Origin: Lingula anatina
Lineage: Eukaryota > Animalia > Brachiopoda
Length of the DNA: 64,000 nucleotides
Assembly (NCBI GenBank): GCA_051362555.1
Contig: CM120646.1
Span: 14,260,001-14,324,000, forward strand
Direction of reading: 5' to 3'
The notes below the pieces were generated by a model. The model did not search any database. It was given only the letters and a program-made list of their open reading frames with translations, and was not told the DNA's origin. Shown in pieces: positions 7,200 to 40,261 of the stretch (position 1 is its first letter; each line of letters begins with the position of its first letter). The position numbers and the translations under genes were made by a program.

Positions 7200-8275
7200 A
7201 TAAACTTTGAACAGTGTTTCTTAGTCTGGGTATACATCTTTGAAGGCAATACCACAAAACAATCGTTTATAAACATAATACACTTGTAACTTTATATATC
7301 ATAATCTTACATAATGCAACATGTTTTTACTTTAAATTTAATAATAATAATGATTTGATCATTAAAGTTTGTAGACGTAGGAAAAGAGTTGCTACATGAT
7401 GATAACACACAATACACTGTTGGAAGGTGTTAGGAGCTATGAAGGTGTTAGGAGCTATGAAAAATAAAATAAAAACATTTTAATATGGCGGACATTTTTA
7501 TCAACTCAATTCAACGTATACACTTTGTGTGTGTGTGTGTGTGACATGTGTGTGTGTGTGTGTGTTTCACAAGAGCCAGAAACCTGCAAACATTTGGCAT
7601 CGAACGGTGATTAAAAAATAAGATTCATTTCAATGAATTATCTATTTCTGCTAGGAGTTGGTATACCGCAGGCGAAGAAAAAAGATCTCCTGGTATCAAA
7701 AGAATTACTGCATACAAATCTACATCTGTGTGATGTACAGATAAATATTACAGAACACCTAAAATAATGACCTAAATACAATTTTAGCTGTGACAATTTA
7801 CTTGCGAGAGAGAGAGAGGGTGGAGCAAGGAAAGCCTTGATTTTAGACAACCGACAATCGGAACACAAAAATCAAACAAACAAACAGAAATAAAAAACGT
7901 AGAACAAAAATGCATATCATACAATTTTACGATATATCTAAAAACACTAGTTAACGGGACTGAATGAACTCAAAGTACAAGTATGTATTTTTATACACTA
8001 CAGGACTATAGTTAAGGTATTAAACATGAAATACCATGTAATCTACACTGCTAAAGTATAGTTTCACAACCCGTGTATAAGATCACCTACTTGTTGTAAT
8101 ACGTGCACCTAACTGTATCTGTGCGACTATCCTGACGATCACAAGACATAGCACTGAAACAAGTAACAAAGTACACGTGCGACACACAACTCTTGCGGAG
8201 GGATGAGACGGTCAACCTAGAAAGGCAATTCTCCATCTTTCCCTCTTTTCTGCATCTGATCCTTGGTGTTTTATA
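7200..8275 (-). pseudogene. Inverted pseudogene of the Cys-rich peptide family
   Basis: On the minus strand: TATAAAA at 8275-8269; exon 1 at 8187-8091 reads (GTG)CRTCTLLLVSVLCLVIVRIVAQIQLGARITT with ATG changed to GTG and an A|gtaggt donor. The intron is homologous to copy E intron 1. Exon 2 (about 7455-7405) is degenerate, with an 18-bp duplication and no good donor. No exon 3 found. Confidence 0.85.
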
Positions 8276-9639
8276 CAGGAACAAAACAATGCACCGTATG
8301 TTATTGCAGTGATACCATCACTTGTTCCCGTTTGTGGCAGTGCGTAAATAATAGAGTTGTGATGGACCGGCACCGTTATTTAAATATCAAGTGCCTTTCA
8401 ACTTAGTGTATTAATAATTGATTCGTTATAGGTTACCATAAGTAATACTTACAAAGTTGTAGGTTAACTGTGCTGAACCACAAACGCGTATTACCTGCAC
8501 ATACCTATATGATAAATTCATTTCCTAAAAGATATGGGTGGATTCCTTTTCTCTTTAAGTACAGCTGTGTCGGTTGGTGCAGATTTAAATGCGGTATTTG
8601 GGTCAAAGGACAAGCAATTAGGAACCTAAATTTTGAAATGTACACAATGGCCATTAGAGATATCTGGGAGAAAGACTCTTCATTTTGAACCAAGCACTAT
8701 ATTTATGTAGGGTTCACTTATCGTTTTTCACTGAAAATACCGCTTGCTATCTTACGTGACAAGAAAACATCGTAAAACTAAATATATAATTTATGACTGC
8801 AACACTAATATTACTCCACACAGTTCATTTATGGTGAGAAATAGATCATTAGGTTAAGATGCCTCATTCATGGCCACGTGTCGTTTTTTTCACTTTGTGC
8901 TATTTCAAGGGTATATCTTTGGCTAATCAGTGGCAAATTTCTCCATTCGCGTTGGAGAAAAGTGATCATAATTAATCAGCGGTCCTGTTAGATGGTACAA
9001 TGAATGATCAGGAGATGTTGCACTCATGTTTGTGTATATTTCATCGGTACATCGACAACTCATCCATTTCTGTTGCAGTATACACGAAATTATTTCCCTC
9101 CAAAATGCCAATATAATAAGCAAATTACATGCCTATGAAATATGCCACTGTGCAATAAGTAAACCACATGAAATATGTCAATATACTGTGCACAAGTATA
9201 CTGATAGATGACGTGCCTTCTTAAACAAACGTACAGCCCGCGACTTGAAACAGGCCAACACAGGTGCGTCATGGTCCTGTCCAACTATTCTTTTTTTTCA
9301 GGGCCATAACCTCACCTGGGTCACCATTTGGTAAATACTGGAAGAGAATTGGATAAGCGTCGGCGATGTACAGATAAAAGACAAAAACGTGAGTGCAACA
9401 TCTCCTGATAATGGGGTTACTATTTCTATTTTTCACTTAAGGTTAATTGTATGGTGCAATATCAGTATTGTATATAAAATATATACCTTTAATTGTACGA
9501 TGTTTTCTTGTCACGTAAGAAAGCAATCAGTATTTACAGTCAAAATAATAGGTGGAGTCTATATAAATATATATAGCCAGAGACATATCGGTGAATATGT
9601 AGTGAAACATTAATCTGTGGTCCAGGCAGAGGGTATCCC

Positions 9640-10200
9640 GATCATCGGGTAACGCACTTACCAAAACTATCTATTTCTATTTCTCACCATAAATACACTT
9701 AACATGTGTGGAGTAATATTAGTGTTGCGGTCGAAAATTGTATATTTAATTTTACAATGTCTTCTTGTCATGTAAGAGAGAAAGCAGTATTTATAGTGAA
9801 AATGATAGACGAACACTACATAAATATAGTGGTGGATTCATGACATAAAGTCTTTCTCGAAAATATATCAAAGGTCCATTATTAAATGTCTAAATTAATG
9901 TTTCTTATTTTTTTTAGTTCTTTGATACAAATTACCGAATTCAAATCCTCACCAGGCGACACAGCAAAGTTAACCTGTCACTCTTAAAGTATTGCTTATG
10001 ATAACCTTTAAAGAATCAATTATTAATACTTTTATTTTAGTTGAAGGGAACTCGATATTTAAGTAACAGTATCGGTCCATCACAGCCCTATTATCTATGC
10101 ACTGGTACAAACAGGAACAAGTGATGGTATCTTGATGATAACAGATTTAGAGAAAACACAAAGTACATTGTTCCGGTCTTGTATAAAACGCCAAGGAACA
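9640..10200 (+). promoter_or_regulatory. Conserved upstream module and TATA box of peptide gene A
   Basis: TATAAAA at 10182-10188, 85 bp before the ATG. The same ~550-650 bp block precedes every family member (about 16560, 18160, 21550, 27690, and inverted at 8275-8870). Confidence 0.7.
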
Positions 10201-10266
10201 GGTGCAGAAGAGGAAAGAGCAAGAATTGTCCAGCTTGATTGATCATCACATCTCGCCGCCAGCAGT

Positions 10267-10601
10267 ATGGGTCGTACGTGTACTTTGTTACTCGCTGCAG
10301 TGCTCTGTGTTGTGGTCTTTGGGATAGGAGCGCAAGCACAGACGGGAGGATCATTGGGAAGTAGGTGAAGTGCTTCACAGGCTGGGAAGCTTGACGTTTT
10401 TTAAAATTTAGCTATCGAGTTTGCCTGATATTGTATGATTGAATTGATGATTATAGTAGTATGGGATATCAAAAATTAGTGATGCTGTTTTCAGTTCCTT
10501 CAATTCAAACGTCATCATTTTCTGATGCAGCATAAACTTGTAATTATATAAGATATACACTTTGTGCACAAAGGGGGTGTTTGTGCTCCAGTGGTTGATA
10601 A

Positions 10602-10651
<50 letters not shown>

Positions 10652-11639
10652 GCAGTTTGAGTCGTAGACAAATATGTCAATTATATATCTCCAATTTAAC
10701 GTTTAAATAAAACGACATAATTTGATTCATGTGATAATCAATATAGCAAACAATGTACGTCCTACACGTTTTTGTGTGTGATAAACCAATTTGCTAATTT
10801 TATTTTGTAAACGTATTAAACATGTATGGTTTGATTTATGCTGATGCTGTAATTCATGATACGAGAATCCACATGTTTTCGGCTATGGCGACCGAATCTC
10901 ATAACAAAGATAATTCTCTGAAATGAATGCACCTTTTTGACCACCATCCGTGTCATATATCACGGGTCTATATACCACATACTAGTAACGTAACACTTGA
11001 ACAAATCAAACTTTATTGTCGCCCATTTTTGAAATATTTACCTCAGTTTATTCTTGATCCATTGTGCACGCAGAGCTTGATTTTGTTATTGAGGGAAAAA
11101 AATAACTGGACTGAGTTGACAAAAAAAGAGAAAAAACGTCCATTATGTCAAAACGTTTCAATTTCTTTTTTTTTTTCAGATCTGATATTTCCTCCCAACC
11201 AGTGCACCAACAGCATATGGTGTTGTAAGTAATTTATATATTACATCAACTGTATCTCTCTGTCTAAAGTCTAAAATCTACATGTATAAATCTGACTTTA
11301 AAAAGTTTGAGCATGTTGTTTTAGGTTATTCTGTGCTATATGAAGTTAAATGTACCTTATGTTCATACGCAAATACCTAACTTAAAATGGGCATTAACGT
11401 TAATGATTTTGATAGCCGAATTAATAAAACCAAGATTTAATATTGCCATTGTATCAATACTGATTCCAAATACCTTTTCAGTTGTTTGCCGTGCCTTTTT
11501 TTCGGGGACCTGCAGATCCACCAGTTGCCCGTTTTTTTCTCGACCTATTGCCAATTTTCTGAGTTCTAATAACCAAGTGACATGCAGATGCTGTAGATCC
11601 TTCAGCTTTCCCCTGGCGGCTGCTACCACGACTGGATAG
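10267..11639 (+). CDS. Secreted 8-Cys cationic peptide, copy A (98 aa); exons 10267-10360, 11180-11224, 11482-11639; non-coding exon from 12262
   Basis: Spliced product MGRTCTLLLAAVLCVVVFGIGAQAQTGGSLGNLIFPPNQCTNSIWCFVCRAFFSGTCRSTSCPFFSRPIANFLSSNNQVTCRCCRSFSFPLAAATTTG*. Both coding introns are phase 1 with GT/AG (gtaggt, tttcag, gtaagt, tttcag). TAG|gtgaga donor; AATAAA near 12702 and 12714. Confidence 0.88.
10606..10647. repeat. (CT)n microsatellite in intron 1 of copy A
   Basis: Direct reading of the tandem CT run. Confidence 0.95.
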
Positions 11640-13872
11640 GTGAGAACAAAGAGATACTATAATTACAACGTACATGTGTGCACGCACGTGGCCAGCATCT
11701 GTGTTCGTTCACGTGCGCTCCGTGTAAACTTAGAGCGTGTGATTCGAACACGGAAGTGGTTTGTTAAGTGCGACGTGTGTGCGTGTACCTGTATGCGTGC
11801 GTGTGTGTTCGTGTAGGCGTGTGTCAATGTCCATAGACGCTGTATTTGCGCTAGTGGTAGAGTATGTGTGCATGAAATGACAAGGAAGATTCGTTATCCC
11901 GCCCTCAGTATGTCGTACTTAACTTGTAATTGGTAATTTTAGTCAGTGTATGTTAGAACTTCAGAATATGCTATTGGAATTTTATATCGGATGTTGTCAA
12001 ATCGTAAGTCTTTTAAAATCTTAAACAATCTGCGTAGTGCTGATAAGGACGCGCAACGCGGTTATACAGAGTTCTTTATTCCTGTTCGTATACTTATATT
12101 AGCATCAGTTTTCATTTTTATTTGTATGAGGTTTATATGTTTGAGTTTTGGCGCAGATAGATACTTTAATGTCATTATACTTGGTTAGTGTAACTTCACT
12201 AATCCACATTGATTGAACCAAGTTTCTAAAAATATACATTACCGATTGTATTAACTTTCAGATAAAGAGAAGCAAAGAAATCAACAGGAACAAGATCATG
12301 CCTCCAATTTGAAGGTCACGCTTACGTATGGAATAACCGAAACCAAATGCTTCACTAGTTATACTGTTAGACAAAATACTGTATATGCTTCGTTTTGCGA
12401 TTGTGAGAACAAGAAGATGTACCCATTGCTTCTCTTTTTAGATAATGTATTTGATCATGAATCCAACTGTTATTCATAATACTCGTTTTAGCATATACTG
12501 TTCTAAAGAGATGATTATTTTCATCATTTCGCGTTACAAAGAAAACGTATTTCTTATTTCGTTTCCAAATACGTAAATAGAAAATTTATGTCAAGTGCCA
12601 TAAACGTTAAAAGAAGTTGTGTGTTCTGGTAATGTAAAAAATCACTTTAGTAAAAAATATAGAGATATTGTACAATGTATCTACCTTGCTCTCTAAAATG
12701 CAATAAAATAAGCAATAAAGCAAATATCCAATAATCAGGATATATCTTTAACATGTACGACTGACCAGATCGAGGGCTGGTATATGTTCATCCTTTTTAT
12801 CCCCTCACGTTTCAAACATGTCTGATATGCTTCAATGGCCCCCGTTAAGCCACTGTTACATCAGTCCGGTCTTGTCACTGACAATCATAGTGAATACTCA
12901 TGCTTCCTAGCCTACTACCCTGTCTCTCTCACACCGGGCTTGAGACCACTTGAACAAGAGAATTCATTCCATTCAAAGTTGTGGTACTATGCTTTCAAAA
13001 CACTTCTCAGTCCGATGAAGGCCTTCGCTCATGATGTCAGGGATCTTCATTGATGTGTGTACAAGTAACCACCTTTGGAGCTATAAAAACATGGGCATGA
13101 ACGGTCAGGTTACGTGGCTATCACTAAACCAAAAGGATAGGGTAGGCATAGAGCGACTGACACAATTACTGCCTCGCGGCCAATTAGAATAAGGTAGACG
13201 AGAGATCTTCCGATTTTCTCATAATATATTTTGAGAGTGCGTGTTAAAATCGGCGTGTTTCCCCAAGGAAAGCATAAGCCCCAACACACACGAAAGCATA
13301 AACCCCAACACGCACGATAGTTTCAATGGGAATAAGCCCTTGGACATTGACAATTGCGCTTCAACAACATTACTTTGATCTGGATACAGGGTGACAGATT
13401 CTTTGCTTCATCGAAATTTGAGCTTAAATGAAAGATAAAAACGTCTCAAATACAGTTGCATACAACTTCAAGTGCTTCCAACTTCAGCTACAATTTCATA
13501 TTTCCAACTTTTCCTGCAGCACTATTATTTGTTACCCGTGTCTAACATACCTTTTGGCAGCTGCTCGTAGAGAAACTACTTTTTTTCGTTATATCACAGG
13601 AATTATAATACGACCAGACTCTTAAAGCACTTTCGAAACCAAAACCTCACTTTACCTCGCCCATCTTGATTAAATATAAACACAAAATCCCGTAGAATCC
13701 CATTGGGTAGCACATGTGTCTTAAAAAAACTGACAAATATTTGTTGGATATTTGTTGGCTGTTACATAATGTATCTGTACCCCCTCAGTTCAGAATTTCA
13801 TCCTGTCACGTTGGGGTGTGTGAAAGATGGGGAAACGCAGGGCAAAAAAGTGCTTTGTCATCAATATTTTCA

Positions 13873-15836
13873 CATGGCCAGAAATGCGCAGCATTCACGC
13901 GATACGCGAGGGCGCTAAAGTAGGGCTTCACGTGACTCAACTAGCCAATCACAGCACAACATTGGCATCGTACACAGACTCTGTGATAAGTGCTCAGCCC
14001 ATTGTCAAGTAGTGTTAGTTCATGGTAACAAGCGTCTGACATGAGTAGAGAAGTTTATTGTAATTTATATTCTTATTCGTTTCACTTAATCGCATATAAA
14101 TCATTTATTGTCTAATAACTCGCAACGAAAACACCAACCACCTTTTCCAATTCAAATCATTTATTTCGTTAACCCTTGCTATGAGCTGTTGTTTGCTTGG
14201 CTGCGTTACAGAATGCGTACACACCACGCATTGACTGTCCTTCACAAACTCTCCGACTATAACCATTTACAAACTTCTCTTATTTTCTCTACTTCTGCTA
14301 TTTTCTTTCCCTTCTTTTCTTTTTTCTTTTTATACACTTTTCAACCACCTTTATTGTATTTCAATAGATTCTTTCGTTCCATATTTGAACTGTTTCATTC
14401 TTATGTATATATTACCGAATGTGTAAATGTCCAGAATTCACTGCACATCGGAAACTACCATTTTCTTATGTCTTATCACAACTACTCTCGTCTTTGTTAC
14501 CAATTTTGTACATTTTACACTGATCTTTGTATTCTTCATTAATCATAATTAGTACTAAGCAAATACCCTTTAATACTGTACTCCAATTAACTTATTACAA
14601 CTTTTCCATTTTGTGCCTTCTCTGATATATTACTTTCTTGACCAACTTCTATACCATTTAAAATATTCTTTGTTTTATATTTGCGATTTACTTGGACTTG
14701 ACGCAGCAAGCTGAAACAGCCTCGAATGAAATATGCTCATCTCACATTTCCTTTTATACTATTGCGCAATGCACGATCTGCGCATGTCAAACTCCCCGCC
14801 CTATGAACTCATTTCCTCACCTGAATTGCTTCTCTAACACATTTTGCGTTGACTCGTTAAACGACAATAAATTCATATATATTGTTCTTATTGTTACATT
14901 ATTAAATTTAACTCTGTATCCAAGTAGTAACTATACTGTACCAAGTCAGGTACTGATGATGCGCAGAGGTCATATATTCCAGAATAAGCCATTACCACTA
15001 ATTTATAACTTTAATTTTGTTTCATATGTTATTCATGAAAGAGTTCATGAAATATTATTTTAATTTGTTAAATCGTGATCTTATTCTTTTTATATTCAAA
15101 TAATTGAATAATGTGGGTAAAATTGGTCTTCCACTTCTTATTTGCATTTTTCCTTTATTACAAGATTATTTTGGAACAGTTGCAGCATTAAAATTTAAAA
15201 TAAATAGCAATCTGAAAGAAGAATTTTGCATTATTATTAAATGATGATAGGAATTTTGGATTAAGAGATTAGTTAAATACTGAGTAGTGATATTGTCAGT
15301 CAATTTATGTAGAATCTGATAATATGATTGAAAATACTGATTGAATTCCTGGCCTTGCACTGGGCAGTTTCACATTTGTGCCAAGTGCTTTTTTTGGACT
15401 CCATTGTACAGTGGTAAAAGTTCTTCAATTGCCATGAAAGTTTTTAATCAGACTCTGTATGGTGCTGCTATCTGCTGGTGCTATCGGCAACGAATTAGTT
15501 TGCCTTTGTTTCTGAGTGAATCTACCGTCTAAAATCACTATTTCTGAAAATATGTGCGTTTTGCTGAGGGTAGGCTAGGCAATACACGGCAAACTTCTTA
15601 GTACGTGTGTACAACATAATTTTTTTAAAAACCCTAGCGATATTTGGTCAGGAGTTGCTTGAAGCATAGCACAGCGTTGCTGTCTATCGGCATCAGGCCG
15701 TTAGTTTGTCAATTATCACGAATTACCCACGAATCGCGAACCCATTCATTTTCCTATGGCAATCTAGCAACTCATTAAAAGTGCACGCATGCGCAGTGGG
15801 CTATGCATGACGTCATGCAGTGCATTTCTGTGGATG
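13873..15836. mobile_element. ~2 kb non-coding insertion with imperfect ~22-bp terminal inverted repeats (putative non-autonomous DNA transposon)
   Basis: Left end catggccagaaatgcgcagcat; right end reverse complement catccacagaaatgcactgcat. Absent from the paralogous spacers, where caatattttca runs straight into atccctgcaaat (about 20637) or acccttgcaaat (about 26523). Confidence 0.65.
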
Positions 15837-16015
15837 AATCCTTCCAAATAAACGATATTGTGATATAGGTGAAGAAGTTAAAAAAAATATTGTATCCAGT
15901 ACTTTAATGGTATTCAAGGTGAATAAGAGTTGAGAAAAAGTTCATTTTAATGATTTCCCCCGTTTTCATTCCGCTGACAAGGCCTTGAAGAGAGCTGTTT
16001 TTCATATAGCTGTAT

Positions 16016-16270
16016 CAGGCTTACCTAACTACCAGACTCGGCACCGAATGATCCTGTATTCATCGATAGATCGGACCACATTACCCGTTTTCAAGGTGTG
16101 TGTCAGCACGCTCTTCGAAGTATCAGTCGCGACACCGCACTTGCCTAGTACGTGATGTGATAGTGATGATTCTCAGAGGGGTTGGAAAGTAGTGCATCTT
16201 ATCTTAAATTTTGTTCCGGGGTATGATACTGTGAAATGCGTACTGACACACACCTTGAAAACGGGTAGTA
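16016..16270 (+). mobile_element. Internally deleted, right-truncated copy of the 34345-35317 element
   Basis: Starts caggcttacctaactaccagactcggcacc and shares acccgttttcaaggtgtgtgtcag and its inverted partner ctgacacacaccttgaaaacgg. Absent from the paralogous spacers at about 20840 and 26730. Confidence 0.8.
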
Positions 16271-17207
16271 AAGTTGTTTACAATGATTTGTCGAGAAGAA
16301 CCGTCAGTGATAATGGCAACGCCAATACAATACGCAAATTGTAATGAAATATGCTAGTATACACAAATATACTGGTGGATAACGTGCTTAATGAAAGAAA
16401 CGCACAAAAAAGACCGGAAGAAGGCCTAAACATGTACAACGTTGTTCTATCCTGCATTTTTTTACGGGCATCAATCTAGCCTGGGCCACAATTTCGTGAA
16501 TACTGGAAGTGGATTTGATAAACGTTGGCGGTGTACTATGTAAGACACAAACGAGTGCAATATCTCCTGACCATGGGGTTACGCACTTACCAAAATGATG
16601 CATTTCTATTTCTCACTATAAATTAACTGTATAATGTAATTTTAGTGTTACGTTATAATGTCTATATTCAATTTTACGATGTCTTTCTTGTCACGTAAGA
16701 TAGCTAACAGTATTTTCAGTGAAAATAATAGGTGTACCCTACCTAAATATAGTGCATGGTTCATAATGAAGAGTCTTATCTTAAATGTCTATTGTGTAAA
16801 TTTCTTAATTTACGTTTCTTATTTTTTGTCGTTTGATATAAATGTCGCATTTAAATCGCCACCAAGCGACACGGCATAAGTCGACATAAGTATATTTTAG
16901 GAAAAAAAATTGATCATATGGGTTCGTTTATAATAAGCATGTTTTCTACATAGAAGAATTTATCAGCCACTTAATAGCATCACTTATGATAACCTATAAC
17001 AACTCGATACTTACGTAACAGAACCGGTCTGTTACAACTCTATTATTTACACACTGGCACAAACGGGAACAAGTGATGGTATCTTTTTAATGACAAATTC
17101 GGAAAAAAAAGATAAATTGTTCCATTCCTGTATAAAACAGCAGGAACCAACTGTAGAAAAAGAAAAAGCGCGATTTGTACTTTTTGTCACATCTCACCGC
17201 CAGCGTC

Positions 17208-19804: not shown

Positions 19805-22238
19805 GTGAGAACAAAGAGATTGGACAAGTTCGCACACACACTCGGTGTAAAAAAAAACGCATAGAACTAAATAAAAAACGTATAATAAAGTAAAAAAAAA
19901 CAACAAAACACAGTTAAAACGTATTAGCACTAACAAATTATGACAATTAAGTGCAGCTGCATGTAATTAAATGTCAGTCAGTTGCTCGAGGTTGCTCGCT
20001 AGTTGCTCGAGGAGACGTGTCTTTTAGTCAATCTGATTGCATTCAGCGATAGTCCCCGCGGAGTTGGATCAATCTATGTAGAACGATAGATTCAATGGGA
20101 ATAAGCCCTTGGACATTGGCAATCGCGCTTCAACAACGTTACTTTGATCTGGATACTGGGTGACAGATTCTTAACTTCGTTGAAATTTGAGCTTAAAAAA
20201 ACGAAACGTCTCAAATACAGCTGCATACAAATTCGAGTGCTTCCGATTTCAGGTATAATTTCATATTTTCCAACTTTTCCTGCAGCACTATTATTTGTTA
20301 CCTGTTTCTAACATACCTTTTGCCAGCTGTTCGAAGCGAAACTACATTTTTCGTGATATCACAGGAATTGTAACAGGACCACACTTTTAAAGCACATCCA
20401 AACCCGACACCACAATTTGCCTCGCCTATCTTGTTTAAATATGAACACAAAATCCCGTAGAATGCCATTGGGTAGCACGTGTGTCTTAAAATAGCTGTCA
20501 TATGTGATTTGATATTTGTTGGCTGTTACATGATGAATCTGTACCCCCTCAGTCCAGTATTACATCCTGTATTAAATTGGGGATGTGAAAGATGGGGAAA
20601 CGTAGGACGAATAAGTGCTTTGTCATCAATATTTTCAATCCCTGCAAATTAATGCTGAATAGGGAATAAAAGGCCAAACAACATTGTGATAGAGGTGAAA
20701 AAGTTCAAGAAAATTATTGTATACAGTACTTTAATGATATTCAAGATGAATAAGAGTTGAGAAGAAGGTCATTGTCATGATTTCCCCCATTTTTATCCCG
20801 CCAACAAGGCCTTGGAGAGAGCGGTTTTCATATAGTTGTATGGCAAGGTCAATTCGGTCCGTGAAGCTGCTGTATACTAAAAAAGTATCACAACTTCATA
20901 CTAACACGAGTAAATAATGAGGGTTTTTATTTACAGCATTTAGTCTGTTGTCTGACGAATCCGCCATTTAAATGCATGTACAGTACTTGGTTGCTAACGA
21001 CTTAAAAGATAATAAAGCTTCCTGTCAACCTTGTGCCTCGATAAAAGTCTGTGTACCGACCGGCAGTGGCTTCAAACTATTCACAGTTGTGCAACGCTGA
21101 GTCCGTCACTAATATCACTGTGTATTACATGTGATCTCTGTTTCAATGTAAGTTCCAGTATAAGTTGGATTTTCTTAAATATCTCAGTATAATATAACTG
21201 AAAGGATCAACATTTCACTTTTATACCTCATAGCTAAAATTTAAATGACAGAAGTAGACATTGGCTATTATTTTTTAAGAAAATGCTAGTAATACGGCCA
21301 ACACTACTATAGCATCAGTTAAGTTCTATGGTATTTGCAATGATGTGTCGTGAAGAAGCGTCAGTAATTATGACAACGCCAAAAAAAAAAAAAAAAAAAC
21401 GCAAATTATATGAAATATGCTAGTATACAAAAATATACTGGTTGATAACGTGCTTAATGAAACAAACGTATAAAAAAAGGTTTACACATATACGTCATGG
21501 TTCTTTCCAACTATATTTGTTTTGAGGGCAATAACCTAGCCTGGGCCCCGATCATGGGGTTACGCACTTACCAAAAATGATGCATTTCTCTTTCTCACTA
21601 TAAATTAACTGTATGGTGTAATTTTAGTGTTGCGGTTATAATGAATATATTCAATTTTACGATATCTTTTTGTCACGTAAGATAGCTAACAGTTTTTTCT
21701 GTGAAAATGATAGGTGTACCCTACCTAAATATTGTGCTTTGCTCATAATGAAGAGTCCAACTCGAAAATATTAAATGTGTATTGTGTACATTTCTTTATT
21801 TATGTTTCTTATTTTTTGTACTTTGACATAAATGTCGAATTAAATTCCGCACCGAGCGACACGGCTTTACTTATGAGGGTTCATAAGTATCTGTTAGGAA
21901 AAATTGATCATATGGGTACGTTTGGTAATAAGCATGATTTCTACTTAGAAGAATTTATCAACCACTTATTAGCATCACTTATGAAAACTTGATAACAAAT
22001 CACTATTTAGCCCTTTTTGTTTAAGGGAACTCGATACATAAGTAGCAGTTCTGGACTAGCAGAACTCTATTATTTACACACTGGCACAAATGGGAACAAG
22101 TGATTGTATCGTTATAATGGCTATTTCAGAGAAAACATAAGATGCATTGTTCCATTCCTGTATAAAACACCAGGAACCAACTGTAGTAAAAGAAAAAGCG
22201 AGATTTGTACTTCTTTGTCACATCTCACCGCCAGCGTC

Positions 22239-23784
22239 ATGGGTCGTGTGCGTACTTTGTTATTCGCTGCGTTGCTCTGTCTTGTGGTCGTCGGGATAGA
22301 CGCACAGATTACACGTAGGTGAAACTATATTTTTTCGCAATGTAGTTTTCATGAGATTTTCATGTTTAGGATTATAACAATAGTACAGTGTTGCATCAAA
22401 ATACAGACGTGTATTTTGGTGTTTTTTTCAGTTATGTCAGCTTAGTTACAGCGTGAAATTGTACATGTACAACGTGCACTATTTGTTCTCCAGGGCTCTT
22501 TACAACTTTTTACATTGAACTTGAGAGGGGGAAATAATAGAAAGTACACCTTATAGAAATGTGTTCATTCCATTTTTTTTCATAGTACCAGTACCTAACA
22601 GTTGTACCAACAGCATATGGTGTTGTAAGTATCAACTCTTTTCCTATACGTCTAAAAGCTATTTTTGTCAGATAAATAAGAATTAAGATAATTAATTATA
22701 TTTATGTAGGAAATGGTTTGTTTTTAGTGGTGGTAATAACTTTATTAATAAAACATCAACATTTGTTGATAGGAAATAGTCTTAGTTTGGGTCTTGTGTC
22801 TGCACATTTTGACCTTAAGTAGTTGACCCAGGCAAGGTGATAACAGGGTTATGAAATGTCTTAGCTGCTGTGTAACTAGGCACATGCATTTATTTTTTAT
22901 GAAAGATGTTTTGGGAACTATTTCTAACGAGCTGCATCAGTGAGAAGTCATTTAGCGGCTTTTGAGCTGCTGAGATATTTACCGCAGTTTTACCAGCTAC
23001 GCTGTATTATTACTTACGTTTCTTTATTTTTATGTGTACATTGGTAAAAAATGAGAAATCACAACAGCTATAGGAGAAAAAAGTTGGCACAAATGAAAAA
23101 AGACCATAAGATGTGAGAGAAGATCACATCTGTGCCAAGCCTTTTATTTTCATTTGCACCAACTTTTAGCTCCTATAGCTGTTGTGATTTCTCATATTTT
23201 TGTTAATTAATCTTGGTTACACTCATACTTTATTATTTTTATATTATGGCACTTATATAGTTTGGGGGATGTTATATTATCTCCCCAGTTTTGTAACTTT
23301 GTATCTTATTAGTTTTCGTCATAAACAAATGACAATTTTCAGTCATATGGACTTAATTATCTTACTTTTGAGCGAAAACAGAGCTTCGTTGTGCTTATGA
23401 ACATTTGGCTATATAAATATATTGAATTAAAAGTAAAAACAAATATGCCATATGTTAGATTATGATTATAAAATAGCACATGTATTATGTTCTTTAGCAA
23501 TTGCCTCTGGTGGGATTGCTTTCAAAGGGGTACATAAATCTTGGAAACACTGAAGTTTATGATATCACAGATAATTGAAATGCATCGGCTTACGTGCAAC
23601 TTCTATGTATTACATAAATAACATCTTAAGCCTCATCTTTTCAGTGGTTTGCCGTCTCTTTTTTGGAGCAACTTGCAGCACTAACCAGTGCACGCCTTCG
23701 AATAGCGCACTTGCCGCTTTTCTGGGCACCAATAACCAGCAGGTTTGCTATTGCTGCAGGGCTTCCCTTCCTGGCCTAGGCTAG
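22239..23784 (+). CDS. Secreted 8-Cys peptide, copy D (84 aa); exons 22239-22314, 22586-22624, 23645-23784; non-coding exon from 24365
   Basis: TATAAAA at 22161. Product MGRVRTLLFAALLCLVVVGIDAQITLPVPNSCTNSIWCLVCRLFFGATCSTNQCTPSNSALAAFLGTNNQQVCYCCRASLPGLG*. Phase-1 GT/AG introns, TAG|gtgaga donor, AATAAA at 24701. Confidence 0.88.
23051..23195. repeat. ~145-bp imperfect palindrome (MITE-like) inside a ~730-bp insertion in intron 2 of copy D
   Basis: atgagaaatcacaacagctataggag at 23051 pairs with ctcctatagctgttgtgatttctcat ending at 23195. Intron 2 is 1020 nt in D and 285 nt in E. Confidence 0.8.
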
Positions 23785-26700
23785 GTGAGAACAAGAAGAA
23801 ACTATTTTCTCCGTGCGTCTTGAGTCTGTTCATTCATATGAACACATTGTGTACGCATTGCTTAGGATATTAAACACAAAATGTGCATGTATGTGTGCAC
23901 GCGCATGTGCACAAGTGTGTGTTATATAAAGTTGATTGCCACAGCCGAAATCACCGAATTCATTTCTTAAATTAATAATACTTAAGAATACTGCGGGTGT
24001 TGTATTTACTGTAGTAGAAAGGACATAAATACATATAATGATAATGAAGTTTCTTTTTCCTTGTGTCAAGTATTCCCATATTTTACATTCATTTATATTT
24101 CTAATTAGTATGTGCTTTAATTTTATAATGTGTAACTAGTGATTTTAATTCATTCATTACATTTAATTCATTACTTCGTGTTCTTTAATAGGGATAGTAT
24201 GCAATTGTGCTTTTAAAGAACTCTTTATTGTTACGTATTTGTGATTGTAAGAAATTTCTTTTCATTTATTTTTACTTATTTTAGCACTGTTGAAACGCCA
24301 TTGAACCATGAACACGGAACGTACCGCCTTTCTCAAAAATACACGATATTTTATTACCTTTCAGACAAATCAAAGCAACGAAAAAAGAAGAGCAAGCGCC
24401 CAAGTTTATATCATGTCCGGAATAACCGAAATCAAATTCTTCCTTTAGCTACACTTTGAGACTAAATGCTATATTCCGTAATGGCGATGACAAAGGCACG
24501 TTTTCTTTGCCACTGTTGTATTTTTTGGGCTGAACTGCCAAATTTACATGGTATATAATGTTACAAAGGCAAGAATGTCGTCTCCTTTTCTTACGAAAAA
24601 GTTCTAGAAAATGTATATGAAATGCCAATAATGTTCTAGTAATGTGAACATCAATACATCAAAGATTGTCATAAATTTTACTTGTTCTTTGAAATGCACC
24701 AATAAATTGCTTTGCAAAACCAAACTATTTCCGTTTACATTGTTTTGTGTTGAAACTAATAATATCAAAATAAACATAAATACTTACAAATTCGGAGGTC
24801 GTCTTGAACATTCTAAGACACATCCCAGTCAGACGGCCTTCGTCCAATTTGCCGTAAATAAACTTCACTGCTGTCTTCCCTGTTTACAATTACCATCTTT
24901 ATGTCCCTCAAATCATCAACTTGTTTTTTTTAATTTCATTTCCGTCTAGAAATAGATTTCCAAAAAGACAATGGACATTTCTGATTATATCAGACGAATT
25001 TAAAGAATACGCATTGAATTTCATTCTACCAAATGGAAAAGATTATAGGGGCGTTCAGTCTTTACTTAAAACGTAATCTAAACACACTGTAATCGACTAC
25101 AGTATCCAATTATTTTAATATCAGAAGAAATAATTGAATGGATAATCTTTAAAAATATATGATATTTTAAAGAAAATTGAAAAAAAGCGACCAATTTTAC
25201 ATTTAATACTGAAATTAGACATATACTATGCCTTATTGAAATATAACTAATGTAATTAAAATAATCTTAATATTTTAAATGAAAAGTGTACAAAACATAT
25301 TTTTTATGGGTTTTATACTCCAAATAAAAATATTAGTGTTCACTGTTCATTATATTCGACAATCCAGTCATAACCTTGGTTGCCGTTAGTGGGTAATAAT
25401 CGTCGGACCCACAGATCGGTGCTTTGCATAATGCTAATAGATAAATCTGTGCTAACTTAAATTTTCCACGCTCATTCTATTGGTGGGGAAGTTCGTCCGG
25501 GCTATAAGTCAGCTTTCCACTAGTGCACCTGCACGTTTTGCGGAAATGTTGATTTTCCTGTTTATTGATAAAGAAGAAGTATGCGGTAAACATATATATA
25601 CATGAAAAACTACTCTCCATCGTTGCATATGTACGCTTTGCTAAAATGTTGATGTTTCTGTTTCCTGTTTTCTTTTTTCGTTTTTTTTTAATAAAAAAGA
25701 ACTCCATTTTTAAACATAAATACATAAAAAAGGGTGCATAGAACAAAATGAAAAACGTATAATAAAGTAAAAAAAGTAAAAAAAAAACAATGTTAAAAGA
25801 GATTAGCACTAACAAATTATGACAATTAAGGAAAAACTGCAAGTGCAGCTCCATGTAATTAGATGTCATTCAGAGCTGTGCACTCATGCACTAATGACCC
25901 GCTAGTTGCTGAAGATGACGTGTCCTTTGGTCAATTTGATTTCATTCAGAAAGAGTCCCCGCGGAGTTGGATCAATCTATGTAGAACGATAGTTTCAATG
26001 GGAATAAGCCCTTGGACATTGGCAATTGCCCTTCATCAACGTTACTTTGATCTGGATACTGGGTGACAGATGCTTTGCTTCATCAAAATTTGAGCTTAAA
26101 AAAACAAAAACAAAACGTCTTCAATACAGTTGCATACAACTTCGAGTGCTTCCGACTTCAGGTATAATTTCATATTTTCAAACTTTTCCTGCAGCACTAT
26201 TATTTGTTAACATACCTTTTGCCACCTGCTCTTAGAGAAACTACACTTTTCGTGATATCACAAGAATTGTAACAGGACCAGACTTTTTAAACACTTTCAA
26301 TCCCGACACCACACTTTGCCTCGCCTATCTTGTTTACATATAAACACACAATCCCGTAGAATGCCATTGGGTCCTCGTGTGTCTCAAAATAGCTGACATA
26401 TGTAATTGGATATTTGTTGGCCGTTACATGATGTATGTGTACCCCCTCTGTCCAAAATTTCATCCTGTGTCAAGTTGGGGGTGTGAAAGATGGGAAAAAA
26501 GTGCCTTGTCATCAATATTTTCAACCCTTGCAAATTAATGGCACATGGGGAATAAAAGGCCAAACGATATTGTGATAGAGGTGAAGACGTTTTAGAAAAT
26601 TATTGTACCCAGTACTTTATGGTATTCAAGATGGATAAGAGTTGAGAAAAAAAGTTCATTTTAATGATTTTCCCCGTTTTCATTCAGCTGACAAGGCCTT

Positions 26701-26961
26701 GAAGAGAGCTGTTTTTCATATAGTTGTATGTCAGGGCCAATTCAGTCCGTCTGGCTGCTGTATACTTCAAATAAATATTACAACTTCATATTAACGCGAG
26801 TAAATAATGAGCATTGTATTTATTTACATCAATTATTCTGTTGTCTGACGATCCGCCATTATCATTCATGTACAGTATTTGGTTGCTAAGAACTTTGAAA
26901 ATATTTAACTTCGCGTAAACCTTGGACTTAGATAAAAGTCTGTGTACCGGTCCCCGACCGG

Positions 26962-27126
26962 TGTAAACGGCAGACACGTCCGCCCGCTTCCTTAGGAATA
27001 GTAGTCCTTATGGGACCTGTATTCCTGACGTAAAAATGGATAGGATTTCTATTCCTGACGGTCCTGCATTCCGTTTATCTAGGACTTGCATTCCCAGGAG
27101 TTACTAGGACTACCATTCCTTCCACA
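26962..27126. mobile_element. Ginger1-like MITE (TGT...ACA termini, CCGG target duplication)
   Basis: Flanked by CCGG at 26958-26961 and 27127-27130. The paralogous empty site at about 21060 (accgaCCGGcagtggc) has a single CCGG. The right end ctaccattcc..cacaccgg matches the 40013 element. Confidence 0.75.
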
Positions 27127-28380
27127 CCGGCAGTGGCTTCAAACTATTCACGGTTCTGCAACGCTGAGTCCGACGCTAATATCACTGTGTATTACATGTA
27201 ATCTCCGTTCCAACGTAAGATCCAGTATAAGATGTAATTTTCTAATTATCTCAGTATAATATAACTGGATGAATCAAAATTTCACTTTGAAACCTAGTTG
27301 TTAAGATTTAAATGAAACACGTAGACACTGTTTTTTTCTTTCTTTTTTCTTTTTTTTTTTAAGAAAACGATAGTAGTAAGGCCAATACTAGTATCAGTTG
27401 TTTACAAGGGATTGCCGAGAAAAAGCGTCAGTGATAATGAAAACACCAAAACAATACACAAATTATATCAAATATGCTAGTATACACAAATATACTGGTG
27501 GATAACGTGCTTAATGAAACAAACGTACAAAAAGACCAAAAAAAAAAGACTTACATGTGTACAACGTTGTTCTATCCTGCATATTTTTACGAGCATCAAT
27601 CTCGCCTGGGCCACAATTTTGTGAATACTGGAAGTGGATTTGATAAACGTTGGCGGTGTACTATATATGGCACAAACAAGTGCGTTATCTCCTGATCACG
27701 GGGTTACGAACTTACCAAATGATGCATTTTAATTTTTCACTATAAATTAACTGTATGGTGTAATTTTAGTGTTGCGGTTATAATGTCTATATTCAATTTT
27801 ACGATTTGTTCTGGTCACGTAAGATAGCTAACAGTATTTTCAGTGAAAATGATAGGTGTACCTTTCCTAAATATAGTGCTTGGTTCATAATGAAGAGTCT
27901 TACTCGAAAATATCTTAAATGTCCATTGTGTAAATTTCTTAATTTATTTTTCTTATTTTTTGTCCTTTGGCATAAATGTCGCATTTAAATCCGCACGATG
28001 CGACACGGGTTTACTTATAAGGATTCATAAGTATCTGTTAGGAAAAAATTGATCATATGGGTATGTTCGGCAACAAGCGTGTTTTCTACTTAGAAGAATT
28101 AACCAACCACTTAATAGCATCGCTAATGATTACCTATAACAAATCACCTTTTGGCATGTTTAGTTTAAGGGAACTCGATACTTATGTAACAGTACCCGTC
28201 TGTCACAACTCTATTACCTACCACTGGCACAAACGGGAACAAGTGATTGTATCGTTGTAATGGCAAATTCAGAAAAACATAAGATGCATTGTTCCATTCC
28301 TGTATAAAACACCAGGAATCAACTGTAGAAAGAGAAAAAGCGAGATTTGTACTTCTTTGTCACATCTCACCGCCAGCGTC

Positions 28381-29155
28381 ATGGGTCGTGTGCGTGCTTT
28401 GTTATTCGCTGCGTTGCTCTGTCTTGTGGTCGTCGGGATAGACGCACAGTTTACAAGTAGGTGATCCTCTACACGGGCTATGAAACTATTTTCTCAATGT
28501 AGTTTACATCATGCTTCACGTTTAAAATCATAACTATAGTACAATGTTGCATCAAAATACAGACGTGTATTTTGGCGTTTTTTTTAGCCATGTCGTAAAA
28601 TTGTACAATAAGCACTATTTGTTCTCCGGGGCTTTTTGTGCCCTAATTGTTGGTTGTCTATAGACTAAAGGGTTCCCTCTCTCTCTCTCTCTCTCTCACC
28701 ATTATTTTAGCTTGTAGAAAACCATGTACATATAAAAAGTAACATATTTAGATCGTTGGGTTGATCGATATAGCAAATAATCATTGGACATGGCATACAA
28801 AATAGGCTTTGAATGGCAAGTCCCCTTCAAAGTGTAAATACCTTTGTTTCTGTGTGTGGTTGCCTTGTTGATATAGAACCATCGGATCAGCGCTGCATCC
28901 AATGTGTGCAATTAAATGTTACAGGTAAAATCACATGTAGTTCGTTATTTTAGGTGGTCTGTAAAATTTGTCCATACCACATGTAGATACACATCTGCAT
29001 GCACTAATTCTTTTGGTAAAAGGATATTTTTCCTCGCCTGCGGTGTTCCAACTCCATGCAAACATAGCTAATTCATTGAAATGAATTTAACATTTAACCG
29101 CCGCTCGATACCAAATATTTCCCAAACACACGCACACACAGACACACACAAGCCC

Positions 29156-29240
<85 letters not shown>

Positions 29241-29782
29241 CTTGAGAGGGGGAAATAAATGAATTGAGTTGATAAATAATAGAAAGCCCACCTTACTGAA
29301 ATGTGTTCATTTCATTTTTTATAGCTCCTAACAGTTGTACCAGAAGCATATGGTGTTGTAAGTATTTTTAGTAATAACTCTTTTCCCATACGTCTAAAAA
29401 CTATTTATGTCAAACAATATATTGAATTTAAAGAAAAACAAGTTGCCATATGTAAGATTATGATTATAAAATAACACGTGTATGATGTTCTTTAGCAATT
29501 GTCTCTGGTGGTATTGCTTTCAAAGAGGTAAACAAATTTAGGAAACACTGAGGTTTATGATATCCCAGGCAATCGAAATGCATCGCCCTACATGTAACTT
29601 GTATGTATTACATAAATAATATTTTAATCCACATCTTTTCAGTTGTTTGCCGTATCTTTTTTGGGGGAACTTGCACAACTCAATGCGTTTTTCCGAGTAG
29701 CAGGATTGCCATTTTTCGGGGCACCAATAACCAGCTCTCTTGCAATTGCTGCAGAAGGTTTTCCTTTCCTGTCATAGGCTAG
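28381..29782 (+). CDS. Secreted 8-Cys cationic peptide, copy E (82 aa); exons 28381-28456, 29325-29357, 29643-29782; non-coding exon from 30259
   Basis: TATAAAA at 28303. Product MGRVRALLFAALLCLVVVGIDAQFTTPNSCTRSIWCFVCRIFFGGTCTTQCVFPSSRIAIFRGTNNQLSCNCCRRFSFPVIG*. Phase-1 GT/AG introns, TAG|gtgaga donor, AATAAA at 30596. Entirely absent from the ORF track. Confidence 0.88.
29159..29238. repeat. (TA)n microsatellite in intron 1 of copy E
   Basis: About 80 bp of pure TA. Confidence 0.95.
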
Positions 29783-32148
29783 GTGAGAACAAAGAGAAAC
29801 TGTTTTATACGCGCATGTTCGTGTCTTGAGTCTGTTTGTTCATTCATGTGAACGCAGTGTATACGCAGTGCTTGGGATATTAAACACAAAATGTGCCTGT
29901 ATGTGCGCGCGCGCACGCGCACGAGTATGTGTTATATCAAGTTGATTGTCACAGCCAAAATCACCCTTACCACTTCTTTAATTTATAATACTTCTAATCA
30001 GTATATGCCTCAAATTTTATAATGTGTAACAAGTGATTTTAATTCATTATGTATATCTTACTTCATGTTTATTAATAGGGGTATTATGCAATTGTAAACC
30101 GCGTTTTTAAAGAACTCTTTATTGTTACGTATTTGTGATTAAAAGAGATTTCTATTCATTTATTTTTACTTATTTTAGCACTGTTGAACCGCCATTGAAC
30201 CATGAACACTGAACGTACAGCCTTTCTCAAAAATACACCATATTTTATTACCTTTCAGACAAATCGAAGCAATGAAAAAAGAAGAGCTAGCGTCCAAGTT
30301 TATATCATGTTCGGAATAACCGATATCAAATTCTTCCTTTAGCTACACTTTGAGAGTAAAAGCTATATTCCGTAGTGGCGATGACAAAGGCACGTTTTCA
30401 TTGCCACTCTTGTATTTCTTTGGCTGAACTGCCAAATTTATATGGTATATAATGTTACAAAGGCAAGAATGACGCCTCCTTTTCTTACCAAAAAAGTTCT
30501 AGAAAACTTATATGAAATGCCAACTATAATCTAGTAATGTGAACATCCATACATCAAAGATTGTAATGAATTTTACTTGCTCTTTAAAGTGCATCAATAA
30601 ATTGCTTTGCAAAACCTTTGTTTTGTTTTTATATTAATAATATCAAAAGAAACATAAATACTTAAAATATCGGAGTTCGTCTTGAAGACACATCCCAGTT
30701 TGAAGGACTTCGTCAAATTTGCTGTAAACTTCACTGTTGTCTTCCATGCTTACATTTACCATCTTCATGCCCCTCAAATTGAGATGAACAGTCAGATAGA
30801 TTGGTTTCCACCATGGAAGAATATCTAGATTAACCTCCACGTTTTCCACTGAACACAATGGATGTGACATGAATAGCTCACCTAACACACTCGTCCCGCG
30901 GTAAATAGTCTTCTAATCATGATAGAATCTGGGATTGTAAGTAAAAGCCGGCGTGTTTCTCTAAAAACATAGGTTTTCCTAAGACGACAAAGTTCACAGT
31001 ACTGACAAATAACATTCAAGAGCTCGTATAACGGAAAGAGTGCTCTTCGCAATAAATTAATCCATATGCGCGTGATCAAAATAATCTTGAATACAATAAT
31101 AAAGCAGGTCCATACCATCCATGAAATATATCCTGCACTGAAAAGTTAAGGTATCCTACACGGGATTTCCGCCCACAATCTAATTTTCCTTGCGATATAA
31201 GCAGTTTTCTTCTACTCATGATTCATTAATCAAAGTTATTGGTTTATGGTTTCCGATTCAACAATTCAGTTCTAAACGAATCGTGATCCCTTTTAGACCG
31301 CCATAGTCTTCTTGGCACTTTTAGAAGGAAATAATGACAGCATGACATCATGTAGATACTTTAATTTAATGAGTTTCATCGTTTTTCAATTCTGACGTAG
31401 GATTTGCACGATATGTTGACATCAACATGCGCCATTGGCATATCAAACGCATATGATATACCTTAACATTTAATTTCTTAAAGGAAATTAATTGAGACAA
31501 TTGTCTGCTTTGGTGATACAAATCATTTTAAGGGTGAAGGGGGTAAATGTATGCATTTTACATGTTTATGAATTTATAATATTCAAAAATGTATCGTATC
31601 TAACGTTGCACAGAACCGTAAGTGACTGACTCGGGTTATCGGACCAATTACAGAGAAAGCGGCCAACAATATTATTTACTATGGTATCGTTTTTTAATCT
31701 GCCTGTCAGCCATTTTCTACGTTTATACACATTTCTAGCTTTCTATCTAACCAACTAATGGCTACGAATGTCCACTACACATGTTAGATAATGGCTCCAA
31801 TTATTTTTGCTCACTGGATGCTGGGAAAACGAACAGACGAATTGAACCGATACAATATCTTTGCCAGAGCTTAATTTCTGCTGAGGCTGATCGGACTTTG
31901 ACGTCGTAGCTTTTAATCAGATAATTCCATAACCGCCAGGCTTTTCTTTTGTTCGCTTCCTTTTACGCAGTCCTTTCGTAAACGAATCGCATGTAGGGGT
32001 TTTATTGCATGTGACCACCTTTTCCAATATCAACATCTATAGTCAACCTGTATAAGAAGCCACCTTAGAATGATCAATAACTCATTCGTGTCTTTGGTCT
32101 CTGAAACACAAACACAGTTATACACGTGTGTCCAGAACTCCGTCCTGT

Positions 32149-38162: not shown

Positions 38163-39024
38163 CCAGTTCAATTGACTGGTGGTTTCGTCATATATTCTCT
38201 TGCAGCATTAGACTCTTGTATACGCTAAGAATTGATATAGCACATTTGATTACTTTAGTTTTACAAATACAAACATGAACAAGGATTTGTTCAAGAAGTA
38301 CAAAATATATTTGGAAAAAATCATTTTATTTGCATCACATTCCTTGGATGATCTCTAGCTGTTATGTTTGAACACGTTTAACTGTTCATAGTAGCATAAT
38401 AGTCATTTACAGGGAGCCTTAACTTGTAATATTATCATATAACTGCTATCTTGGCTTCCATATCGGCAGCATTTTTCAGACCGAATATAGTGTGCACATC
38501 AGTAGCTGTACTTGTTCATATTGCCACGTCTTATAATTTCAGTCATCTTGCTGATTGCGACGCCAATGATCATCTACAAGATCTACGTTCACCGCCGAAC
38601 GCGTCGGGACCTAATCCAAGCGCAGGCGCTGAAATTGCAGCACGTGACCAAGGACAGAACCATCAAGTCCGCTGCTATGGTCCTCTCGGTGGCCGTGGCT
38701 TTCATCGTGTTGGTCAACCCCATTGGCATCGCTCACATCGTCTCTAAGGTCACCAATCACGACTTCTTTCGCTCCACCGACACAACCATTAAGGTTGTTC
38801 GGGAAACCACGCAGATATGCGAACAGTTGAATTATTCAATCAACTTCTTTCTGTTCGTAATTTGGAACGACAATTTCAGGGCTAGATTTCTCAGACTATG
38901 GTGGTGCCGTAGTGGCTTAGGCAGTACCTCTAATTCCGTGATGCGCAATGGTCTCCCAGGGAGCTTATCAAATATAAATATCTCAGAGAGGTGTGAATAC
39001 CCTACAGATATGGAAATGGCTTAG
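32149..39024 (+). CDS. Class A (rhodopsin-like) orphan peptide-type GPCR, FMRFamide/sex-peptide-receptor-like group; exons 32149-32999, 35347-35588, 38543-39024 (about 524 aa)
   Basis: TM1 GIPGN, TM2 LSCSD, TM3 SSWFVVLLTCER|LLAVWAPL, TM7 QLNYSINFFLF. Junctions AG|gtaagt (phase 2) and G|gtaagt (phase 1) with tttcag acceptors keep the frame. Long Ser/Thr/Asn-rich N-terminus. Confidence 0.88.
34179..34216. repeat. (AAT)n microsatellite
   Basis: Direct reading. Confidence 0.9.
34345..35317. mobile_element. 973-bp non-autonomous DNA transposon with ~110-bp TIRs (CAGG...CCTG) and a 5-bp TSD (AGTAT)
   Basis: caggcctacccaactaccagactcggcacctacggatccagaat...cattacagagtatca is mirrored by tgatactctgtaatg...attctggatccgtaggtgccgagtctggtaggtaggtaggcctg. 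AGTAT occurs at 34340-34344 and 35318-35322. Confidence 0.9.
38108..38161. repeat. (ATT)n microsatellite
   Basis: Direct reading. Confidence 0.9.
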
Positions 39025-40176: not shown

Positions 40177-40261
40177 CCGGTGTTATGTAGCTGAGGTTCC
40201 ATGTTACATCAGGTACGCCCTCCATTATATACATGAAGGTAATAGTGACAAATGTGGTTTA

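Follow-up and report, generated by a model that had tools for sequence, protein, structure and literature searches.

A tandem cluster of genes for eight-cysteine, probably secreted peptides in the brachiopod Lingula anatina, a candidate beta-defensin-like host-defence family

A tandem cluster of small peptide genes, comprising four intact genes (A, B, D, and E) and two broken copies (Z and C), is present in the brachiopod Lingula anatina within a 64,000-nucleotide (nt) stretch of contig CM120646.1 (assembly GCA_051362555.1), hereafter the window. As judged from the DNA, the family is real, apparently unannotated, and new at the sequence level, and its products, which carry eight Cys, are likely secreted. 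Partly on the basis of structural models, it is suggested with moderate confidence that they form a lineage-specific, beta-defensin-like host-defence family with an added micro-exon that brings in two Cys. The elements of the cluster, numbered by position in the window, are listed below.

7200-8275, minus strand: copy Z pseudogene, with a TATA box at 8275 and an exon-1 remnant without start codon, donor at 8090
from about 7454, minus strand: copy Z micro-exon, degenerate, with an internal short duplication and without donor, followed by part of intron 2; exon 3 is absent
10182-10188, plus strand: copy A TATA box
10267-10360, plus strand: copy A exon 1, coding; signal peptide of 22-24 amino acids (aa; by eye) and the start of the mature peptide
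11180-11224, plus strand: copy A exon 2, micro-exon of 45 nt with Cys1 and Cys2; five reads in RNA run X7
11482-11639, plus strand: copy A exon 3, with six Cys, the last two forming the CC, then the terminal Gly and the stop
12262-12720, plus strand: copy A exon 4, predicted non-coding; AATAAA at 12702 and 12714, 3' end approximate
17131-17283, plus strand: copy B TATA box (17131) and exon 1, coding (17208-17283), E-type
17795-18030, minus strand: inverted promoter fragment in B intron 1, where the two halves of B meet, 87% identical to 8648-8885
18112-18795, plus strand: copy C remnant in B intron 1, an A-type promoter and 5' untranslated region, 88% identical to 9591-10283
18112-18795, plus strand: defects of copy C, namely an altered TATA box, a lost start codon, and a truncated exon 1
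19346-19390, plus strand: copy B exon 2, A-type micro-exon
19647-19804, plus strand: copy B exon 3, A-type, without an exon 4; AATAAA at 19870 and 19884
22161-22314, plus strand: copy D TATA box (22161) and exon 1, coding (22239-22314)
22586-22624, plus strand: copy D exon 2, with an alternative in-frame acceptor at 22592
23645-23784, plus strand: copy D exon 3, the most diverged copy, with two Arg in the mature peptide
24365-24720, plus strand: copy D exon 4, predicted non-coding; AATAAA at 24701, 3' end approximate
28303-28456, plus strand: copy E TATA box (28303) and exon 1, coding (28381-28456)
29325-29357, plus strand: copy E exon 2, micro-exon of 33 nt
29643-29782, plus strand: copy E exon 3, whose product gave a three-stranded model
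30259-30615, plus strand: copy E exon 4, predicted non-coding; AATAAA at 30596, 3' end approximate

The four gene models A, B, D, and E had been proposed in the original prediction, and all of them were found in the sequence at the positions it had assigned. Its account of their architecture also holds: TATAAAA lies 77-85 nt upstream of the ATG in each gene, and all eight coding introns are in phase 1, their donors being GTAGGT or GTAAGT and their acceptors pyrimidine-AG. The coding exons measure 94/45/158 nt in A, 76/45/158 in B, 76/39 (or 33)/140 in D, and 76/33/140 in E, and encode precursors of 98, 92, 84 (or 82), and 82 aa, respectively, which contain no internal stops and are 55-79% identical between pairs of copies. 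An open frame of 82 codons is expected by chance with a probability of about 0.009 at the stop frequency of the flanks, a value that cannot be multiplied over the copies since they are related. In all four genes, intron 2 interrupts the frame in phase 1 two residues before the first Cys of exon 3, and a donor stands directly 3' of the stop codon. Copies A, D, and E have matching acceptors at 12262, 24365, and 30259, followed by AATAAA, which points to a fourth, predicted non-coding 3' exon that had escaped the original prediction.

The search for copies covered the whole window. Exon translations used in tblastn found, among the matches listed, five sites with exon 1, of which one is on the minus strand, and four each with exon 2 and with exon 3; at copy Z they found exon 1 and no exon 3. 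In an alignment of six upstream regions (9960-10290 and its equivalents), 134 of 355 columns are invariant, and among them are blocks that lie 60-130 nt upstream of the TATA box; GATA sites number 2-6 per region against a background of 2.2, which is uninformative since the copies are not independent. A spacer block (13314-13872, 20083-20637, and 25986-26523; 84-87% alike) is repeated after A, B, and D and marks the duplication unit; part of it is also present in unrelated transcripts, as loose read ends.

The Cys spacing that had been put forward for the peptides is exact, being 5,2,7,4,18,1,0 in A, B, and D and 5,2,7,3,18,1,0 in E, and so is the composition, with 5, 5, 2, and 6 Arg in A, B, D, and E, no Asp, Glu, Lys, or His, and nine Phe in A. 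The mature products are Phe-rich, of 6.4-8.2 kDa, with a net charge of +2 to +6 from Arg only. With the cleavage site judged by eye, the first mature residue is Gln in all four, and a terminal Gly invariantly precedes the stop, behind a tail of variable length and sequence. N-terminal Gln and C-terminal Gly are established signals for pyroglutamate formation and amidation, and both ends are thus likely to be blocked in this way. From the exon lengths, 18-32 residues, including two Cys, separate the signal from exon 3, and exon 3 alone encodes six Cys (C-x7-C-x3/4-C-x18-C-x-CC) behind its phase-1 intron. Its third Cys precedes the CC by 20 residues in all four copies, and the CC itself is invariant. 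The gamma-core GXC-x3-9-C is present in A and E and absent in B and D. C-x-C is present; A, B, and D have no C-x3-C, and the only one in E spans Cys4 and Cys5, behind the GXC.

In copy B, which is a mosaic, the 5' half is E-type and the 3' half A-type; exon 4 is missing. Positions 16272-17797 (promoter, exon 1, and start of the intron) are 86% identical to 27396-28957 of E, the region of exons 2 and 3 is 89% identical to A, and the order inside intron 1 is E-type start, inverted promoter fragment, copy C, and then the A-type exons. Non-coding divergence between near copies is 7-20%, and the heterozygosity reported for Lingula is 1.6% (PMC4595640). Since the former is far above the latter, the copies are paralogues in a birth-and-death array; an assembly artefact from allelic duplication was considered and rejected on these figures. 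The birth-and-death array of the original prediction is therefore upheld by the mosaic B, the broken Z and C, and the non-coding divergence. At 18770-18785 (plus strand) in copy C, the former start codon is now donor-like, and this could yield a non-coding first exon or disturb the splicing of B intron 1. An insertion of about 175 nt upstream of E (26950-27125), whose ends look inverted, is absent from the matching segment at 21058, and an element that resembles it by eye lies near 39995-40185.

In exon 3, the proportion of nonsynonymous differences (pN) is below that of synonymous ones (pS) in five of the six copy pairs. Purifying selection is significant for A-E (pN 0.30 vs pS 0.63, Fisher p<0.01) and for B-E (p=0.01), and the other four pairs are non-significant. 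D and E differ at 1 of 66 nt in the signal, 32 of 132 in exon 3, and 223 of 1829 in five pooled non-coding segments, a pool from which the nested exon-4 row was excluded. Against the non-coding pool, the signal of this pair differs less (p=0.003) and exon 3 differs more (p=0.0002), the latter also against its two immediate flanks (65/422; p=0.025). The pair therefore combines a conserved signal with a fast-changing mature region, as in defence peptides and toxins.

All database and fold searches used exon 3 only, that is, six of the eight Cys. No relative was found in 5.8 billion proteins: exon 3 of A gave zero candidates among proteins of 57-182 aa, and the four-copy alignment gave a single candidate, none at E<=10, among those of 24-90 aa; the two length windows take in all four precursors. 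An annotated protein identical to the query would have all its words in common with it, and the genes therefore seem to be missing from the annotations of the protein sets searched. Among 1.84 billion representatives, three matched exon 3 at E<=0.001; two were rejected as long repeat proteins of CCCH zinc-finger look that aligned over query residues 1-19 and 1-17 only, and the third is 2974 aa long. The ESM Atlas gave no usable match for E or A, which indicates neither absence nor novelty, and of 57 pattern matches in metagenome contigs none was confirmed. The statement that the peptides have no recognisable relatives thus stands for the protein, Pfam, PDB, and metagenome searches with exon 3. 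As far as was found, the family is also undescribed in the published literature, in which a 2018 paper on Lingula immunity might mention such peptides; the only literature match to the Cys spacing, plant SRS zinc fingers, was discarded. A library of 390 lophotrochozoan antimicrobial peptides lists four big defensins as its only brachiopod entries and none from Lingula (PMC10414684). In the passages searched, the supplement of PMC4595640 has no defensin or antimicrobial entry, and no brachiopod mention was found in PMC11767717.

Two AlphaFold runs were made with the same four-sequence exon-3 alignment, with either A or E placed first. The E-first model (predicted local distance difference test, pLDDT, 69.6) has strands at residues 9-11, 18-25, and 32-38, and the invariant CC lies inside the last of them. 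Foldseek returned 68 matches to it at E<=10, and eight of the top ten are alpha- or beta-defensins, with one helianthamide (rank 5, E 3.1). When the 68 were re-aligned, 27 reached Z of at least 2, and all 23 entries listed were defensins, a result that is not independent of Foldseek. In a Foldseek-independent search, 14 of 48,161 chains reached Z of at least 2 and ranks 1-9 were all alpha- or beta-defensins, the best being human beta-defensin 4 (Z 3.7, root-mean-square deviation 1.8, 36 of 43 residues aligned), which exceeds the first unrelated row by 1.4 only. The fold lists for this model hold no big defensin and no CS-alpha-beta entry, which rules out neither. What weight these low scores carry comes from their agreement with two independent features, the Cys layout with its span and the phase-1 intron. 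Exon 3 thus resembles the beta-defensin module in Cys layout, phase-1 intron, and, weakly, predicted fold, and the full eight-Cys array matches no named family. The original prediction that the peptides are unlike any defensin therefore stands for the full array and is not fully supported for exon 3.

For expression, four of nine raw-read RNA runs under the same species label were mapped to 10150-29150 at 92% likeness, with 6-25% of each run read. Between 145 and 189 reads were placed per run, and most fit only partly, on dispersed repeats. Run X7 has five reads on A exon 2, with about 178 bases in the bin; this is about one micro-exon length per read and fits spliced reads. The same run has five reads at 12323 in the predicted A exon 4, and the bin 12052-12685 is empty in the other three. 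Exon 3 of B drew six reads in X7 and two in run X3, which come from a divergent allele or paralogue: of seven listed differences, four equal copy A and two are silent, and every Cys is preserved. Another allele or paralogue of A/B type is therefore transcribed at a low level. RNA support for the gene models is thin, with a few A/B-type reads chiefly from one run and no junction listed on the peptide genes in any of the four runs. A short dispersed repeat (16012-16270, 34341-34533, and 35190-35318; both orientations, 81-92% alike), probably a small non-autonomous element, draws the top RNA depth in three of the four runs.

If the peptides are beta-defensin-like, their maturation and action could be described as follows. 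Once the signal peptide is removed, the exposed Gln would cyclise to pyroglutamate, the terminal Gly would become an amide, and four disulfides would form, so that the product would resist exopeptidases. Exon 3 would fold as a three-stranded sheet with Cys3-Cys7 and Cys5-Cys8 paired as in beta-defensins, and the remaining putative disulfides would be Cys4-Cys6 and Cys1-Cys2, or Cys1-Cys4 and Cys2-Cys6. The micro-exon may contribute a short hydrophobic element at the N-terminus, in the place of the large hydrophobic domain of big defensins. Arg would bind anionic microbial surfaces, and Phe and Ile would insert or aggregate. Release may be from coelomic cells or epithelia, restricted or inducible. 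The array itself would grow and decay by unequal crossing-over, with signal exons conserved and the mature exon changing fast.

Several results weigh against a beta-defensin-like host-defence family. The A-first model is helical (pLDDT 52), has no Foldseek match, and contradicts the E-first one; for the latter, Foldseek gave none of its matches at E<=0.001 (best E 2.4), the Z scores lie below the meaningful level of the tool and may reflect a mere common small sheet, and both models rest on exon 3, with six of the eight Cys, from four sequences. Pfam gave nothing significant for any of the four exon-3 products, with no defensin, macin, or toxin family (the lone row is a RING finger at E 0.26), and PDB sequences gave nothing relevant to exon 3, only chance rows such as dionain and a lipid-transfer protein. 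The fourth Cys of the module stands one residue before the CC (C-x-C-C), compared with four to six in trans-defensins, and the mature peptide has eight Cys against the six that define trans-defensins, six being found in exon 3 alone. Phase-1 introns are common in secreted-protein genes generally. No splice junction was seen on the peptide genes in any of the four runs over 10150-29150, depth was zero in all four in the bins with A exon 1, D exon 3, and E exon 1, and strict kappaB sites are absent from all six upstream regions. For exon 3 of D-E, pN is 0.25 and pS 0.21 (p=0.82), a ratio not significantly above 1, and gene conversion could equally give the divergence mosaic of this pair.

The disagreement of the two models, with a helix-forming N-terminus outside both, fits host-defence peptides of an independent fold, CS-alpha-beta-like or new, in which a helix runs from the micro-exon into exon 3 (C-x2-C) and is bound to the strand of the final C-x-C, and the beta-defensin likeness is an artefact or convergence. 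The helix motif of CS-alpha-beta peptides is C-x3-C joined to C-x-C. The order C-x5-C-x2-C-x7-(G)xC ... C-x-C in the array comes near that of Tarr's reference array (PMC5116183), and GXC occurs in A and E. This fold nevertheless seems unlikely, as there are two residues, not three, between the helix-motif Cys, 23-24 residues from the GXC Cys to C-x-C, and an adjacent CC, and the better model matches trans-defensins. Signalling or reproductive peptides, such as a hormone-like ligand or a gamete or spawning factor, would also account for termini with the blocking signals usual in neuropeptides, for only two Arg in copy D, and for near-absent reads in four runs, which would fit expression in a restricted cell type or at one time of year; other roles are also frequent among beta-defensin-like peptides (PMC7203481). 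Such a function is likewise improbable: the precursor lacks a dibasic-flanked layout, fast duplication, loss, and mature-exon divergence are unusual for conserved hormones, and the G protein-coupled receptors (GPCRs) of the window are merely neighbours that nothing links to the peptides.

The blocked termini, four disulfides, and fast-changing mature exon fit as well a deterrent toxin or enzyme inhibitor in mucus or tissue, like the cnidarian defensin-fold peptides, and helianthamide, the Foldseek hit at rank 5 (E 3.1), is an amylase inhibitor; the unpalatability of brachiopods is discussed in the literature. Nothing in the analysis points specifically to a toxin, no toxin family matched exon 3 in Pfam or PDB sequences, Lingula is a filter feeder with no known venom apparatus, and the Lys-free, strongly hydrophobic composition would suit membranes over a channel-binding surface, which makes this role quite unlikely. 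Structural cross-linking peptides of shell, chaetae, or burrow mucus would be secreted, Cys-rich, and lineage-specific too, and Lingula has novel low-molecular-weight shell proteins; those proteins are Gly- or Ala-rich and of 100-200 aa (PMC4595640), whereas the peptides here are non-repetitive, with an even number of Cys, no acidic residues, and very low read depth, and a structural role is therefore very improbable. Hardly probable at all is a decaying array with little or no expression, in which the intact frames would only reflect the youth of the copies: two of the six are broken, the mosaic B lacks exon 4, and there are almost no reads, but all splice sites, frames, and Cys are kept despite a non-coding divergence of 9-20%, purifying selection is seen in A-E and B-E, and A/B-type reads exist. 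A beta-defensin-like host-defence family accordingly remains the preferred reading, and a far-diverged variant of the trans-defensins is more likely than a wholly new kind.

Within the preferred reading, adjacent CC on the final strand is a sequence sign of the two opposed disulfides of trans-defensins. A possible, if rather doubtful, extension is that the family is a new trans-defensin branch that arose by exon shuffling, with a beta-defensin exon joined to the two-Cys micro-exon and C-x-C-C tying a short N-terminal helix to the sheet. The final C-x-C-C bears a cis-type C-x-C and a trans-type CC (PMC7203481), and this is the basis for reading it as a scaffold of both superfamilies. If this is true, it would be the first defence-peptide family of linguliform brachiopods, and a four-disulfide scaffold that combines two defensin superfamilies held unrelated.

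The genes would fill a gap in brachiopod immunity, given the four brachiopod big defensins and none from Lingula in the library (PMC10414684), and they are apparently missing from the public protein sets searched, though a neighbouring GPCR is present there. If the fold is true, the array would be a natural test of the proposal that a Cys-rich exon was joined to new leaders (PMC7203481), and its eight-Cys, doubly blocked, Arg- and Phe-rich scaffold from a marine burrower would be a candidate salt-tolerant antimicrobial. If the fold fails, this is an orphan Cys-rich family, and such families are common in marine invertebrates.

Other genes flank the array in the window. A homeobox exon at 4532-4804 (plus strand; Pfam Homeodomain, E 1.7e-21), which looks to be of the rough (Ro) family, lies about 2.4 kb from the array, with a possible upstream exon in 3506-4054. 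On the plus strand, 32074-33000 and 38506-39021 hold parts of a rhodopsin-type GPCR encoded by several exons, whose N-terminus is long and rich in Ser/Thr and whose 7tm_1 and Srw matches are weak, and 41842-42987 is a single-exon rhodopsin-type GPCR (7tm_1, E 7e-19) whose DRY position seems by eye to be QKY. On the minus strand, 49976-51175 is a single-exon GPCR that is 100% identical to a Lingula anatina protein named allatostatin-A receptor and has a 53% paralogue in the same species; the full identity ties the window to this linguliform brachiopod.

Among known systems, vertebrate beta-defensins and invertebrate beta-defensin-like peptides (panusins and the non-canonical big defensins of Ruditapes and Dreissena) come closest in that a signal stands directly before a small cationic Cys-rich peptide. 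They also share a six-Cys exon behind a phase-1 intron, a terminal CC, tandem clusters, G-x-C at the second Cys of the module (in A and E), and, by the E-first model, a predicted three-stranded sheet. In contrast, the Lingula peptides have eight Cys, two of them from a separate micro-exon of 33-45 nt, a hydrophobic tail with a terminal Gly, no Lys, and no detectable sequence similarity. Trans-defensins are defined by six Cys, and the joining of a Cys-rich exon to new leaders is the proposed origin of beta-defensin-like peptides (PMC7203481).

A phase-1 intron on the 5' side of the Cys-rich region is common to big defensins and beta-defensins; amidation is reported for big defensins, tandem clusters with pseudogenes are typical of those of bivalves (PMC7203481), and big defensins are known from rhynchonelliform brachiopods and phoronids (PMC7203481, PMC10414684). 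Such an intron was found in all four Lingula copies, a weak indication since intron 1 is also in phase 1. By eye, four brachiopod big defensins have a spacing of 6,3,13 or 15,4,0 and third-Cys-to-CC spans of 18, 18, 20, and 20, and a phoronid one has a span of 21 (PMC10414684). The Lingula peptides agree with big defensins in the phase-1 intron before the Cys module, a span of 20 that lies within their 18-21, birth-and-death arrays, a CC often followed by Arg, and probable amidation. They differ in that they lack the N-terminal hydrophobic globular domain and the prodomain ending in Lys-Arg or Arg-Arg that follows the signal peptide in most big defensins (there is no Lys, and no such site before the Cys), and in that the exon-3 array is 7,3/4,18,1,0 instead of 6,3,13/15,4,0, with no RGWC in exon 3.

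The CS-alpha-beta (cis) defensins of molluscs (MGD-type defensins, myticins, mytilins, and macins) share eight Cys, a C-x-C near the end, a C-x5-C opening, and GXC in two copies; the Lingula peptides differ from them in C-x2-C in place of the helix motif, a long segment from GXC to C-x-C, and the adjacent CC. Myticins and mytilins carry a C-terminal acidic prodomain, which the Lingula peptides lack. The mussel CRP-I family is likewise an orphan secreted Cys-rich family with a conserved signal and a fast mature peptide, and it differs in six Cys, a pro region, and another array (PMC4558851). Judged by their defining arrays, the Lingula peptides are thus neither big defensins nor beta-defensins nor CS-alpha-beta members. 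Despite falling outside the definition of a beta-defensin, they may still work like one.

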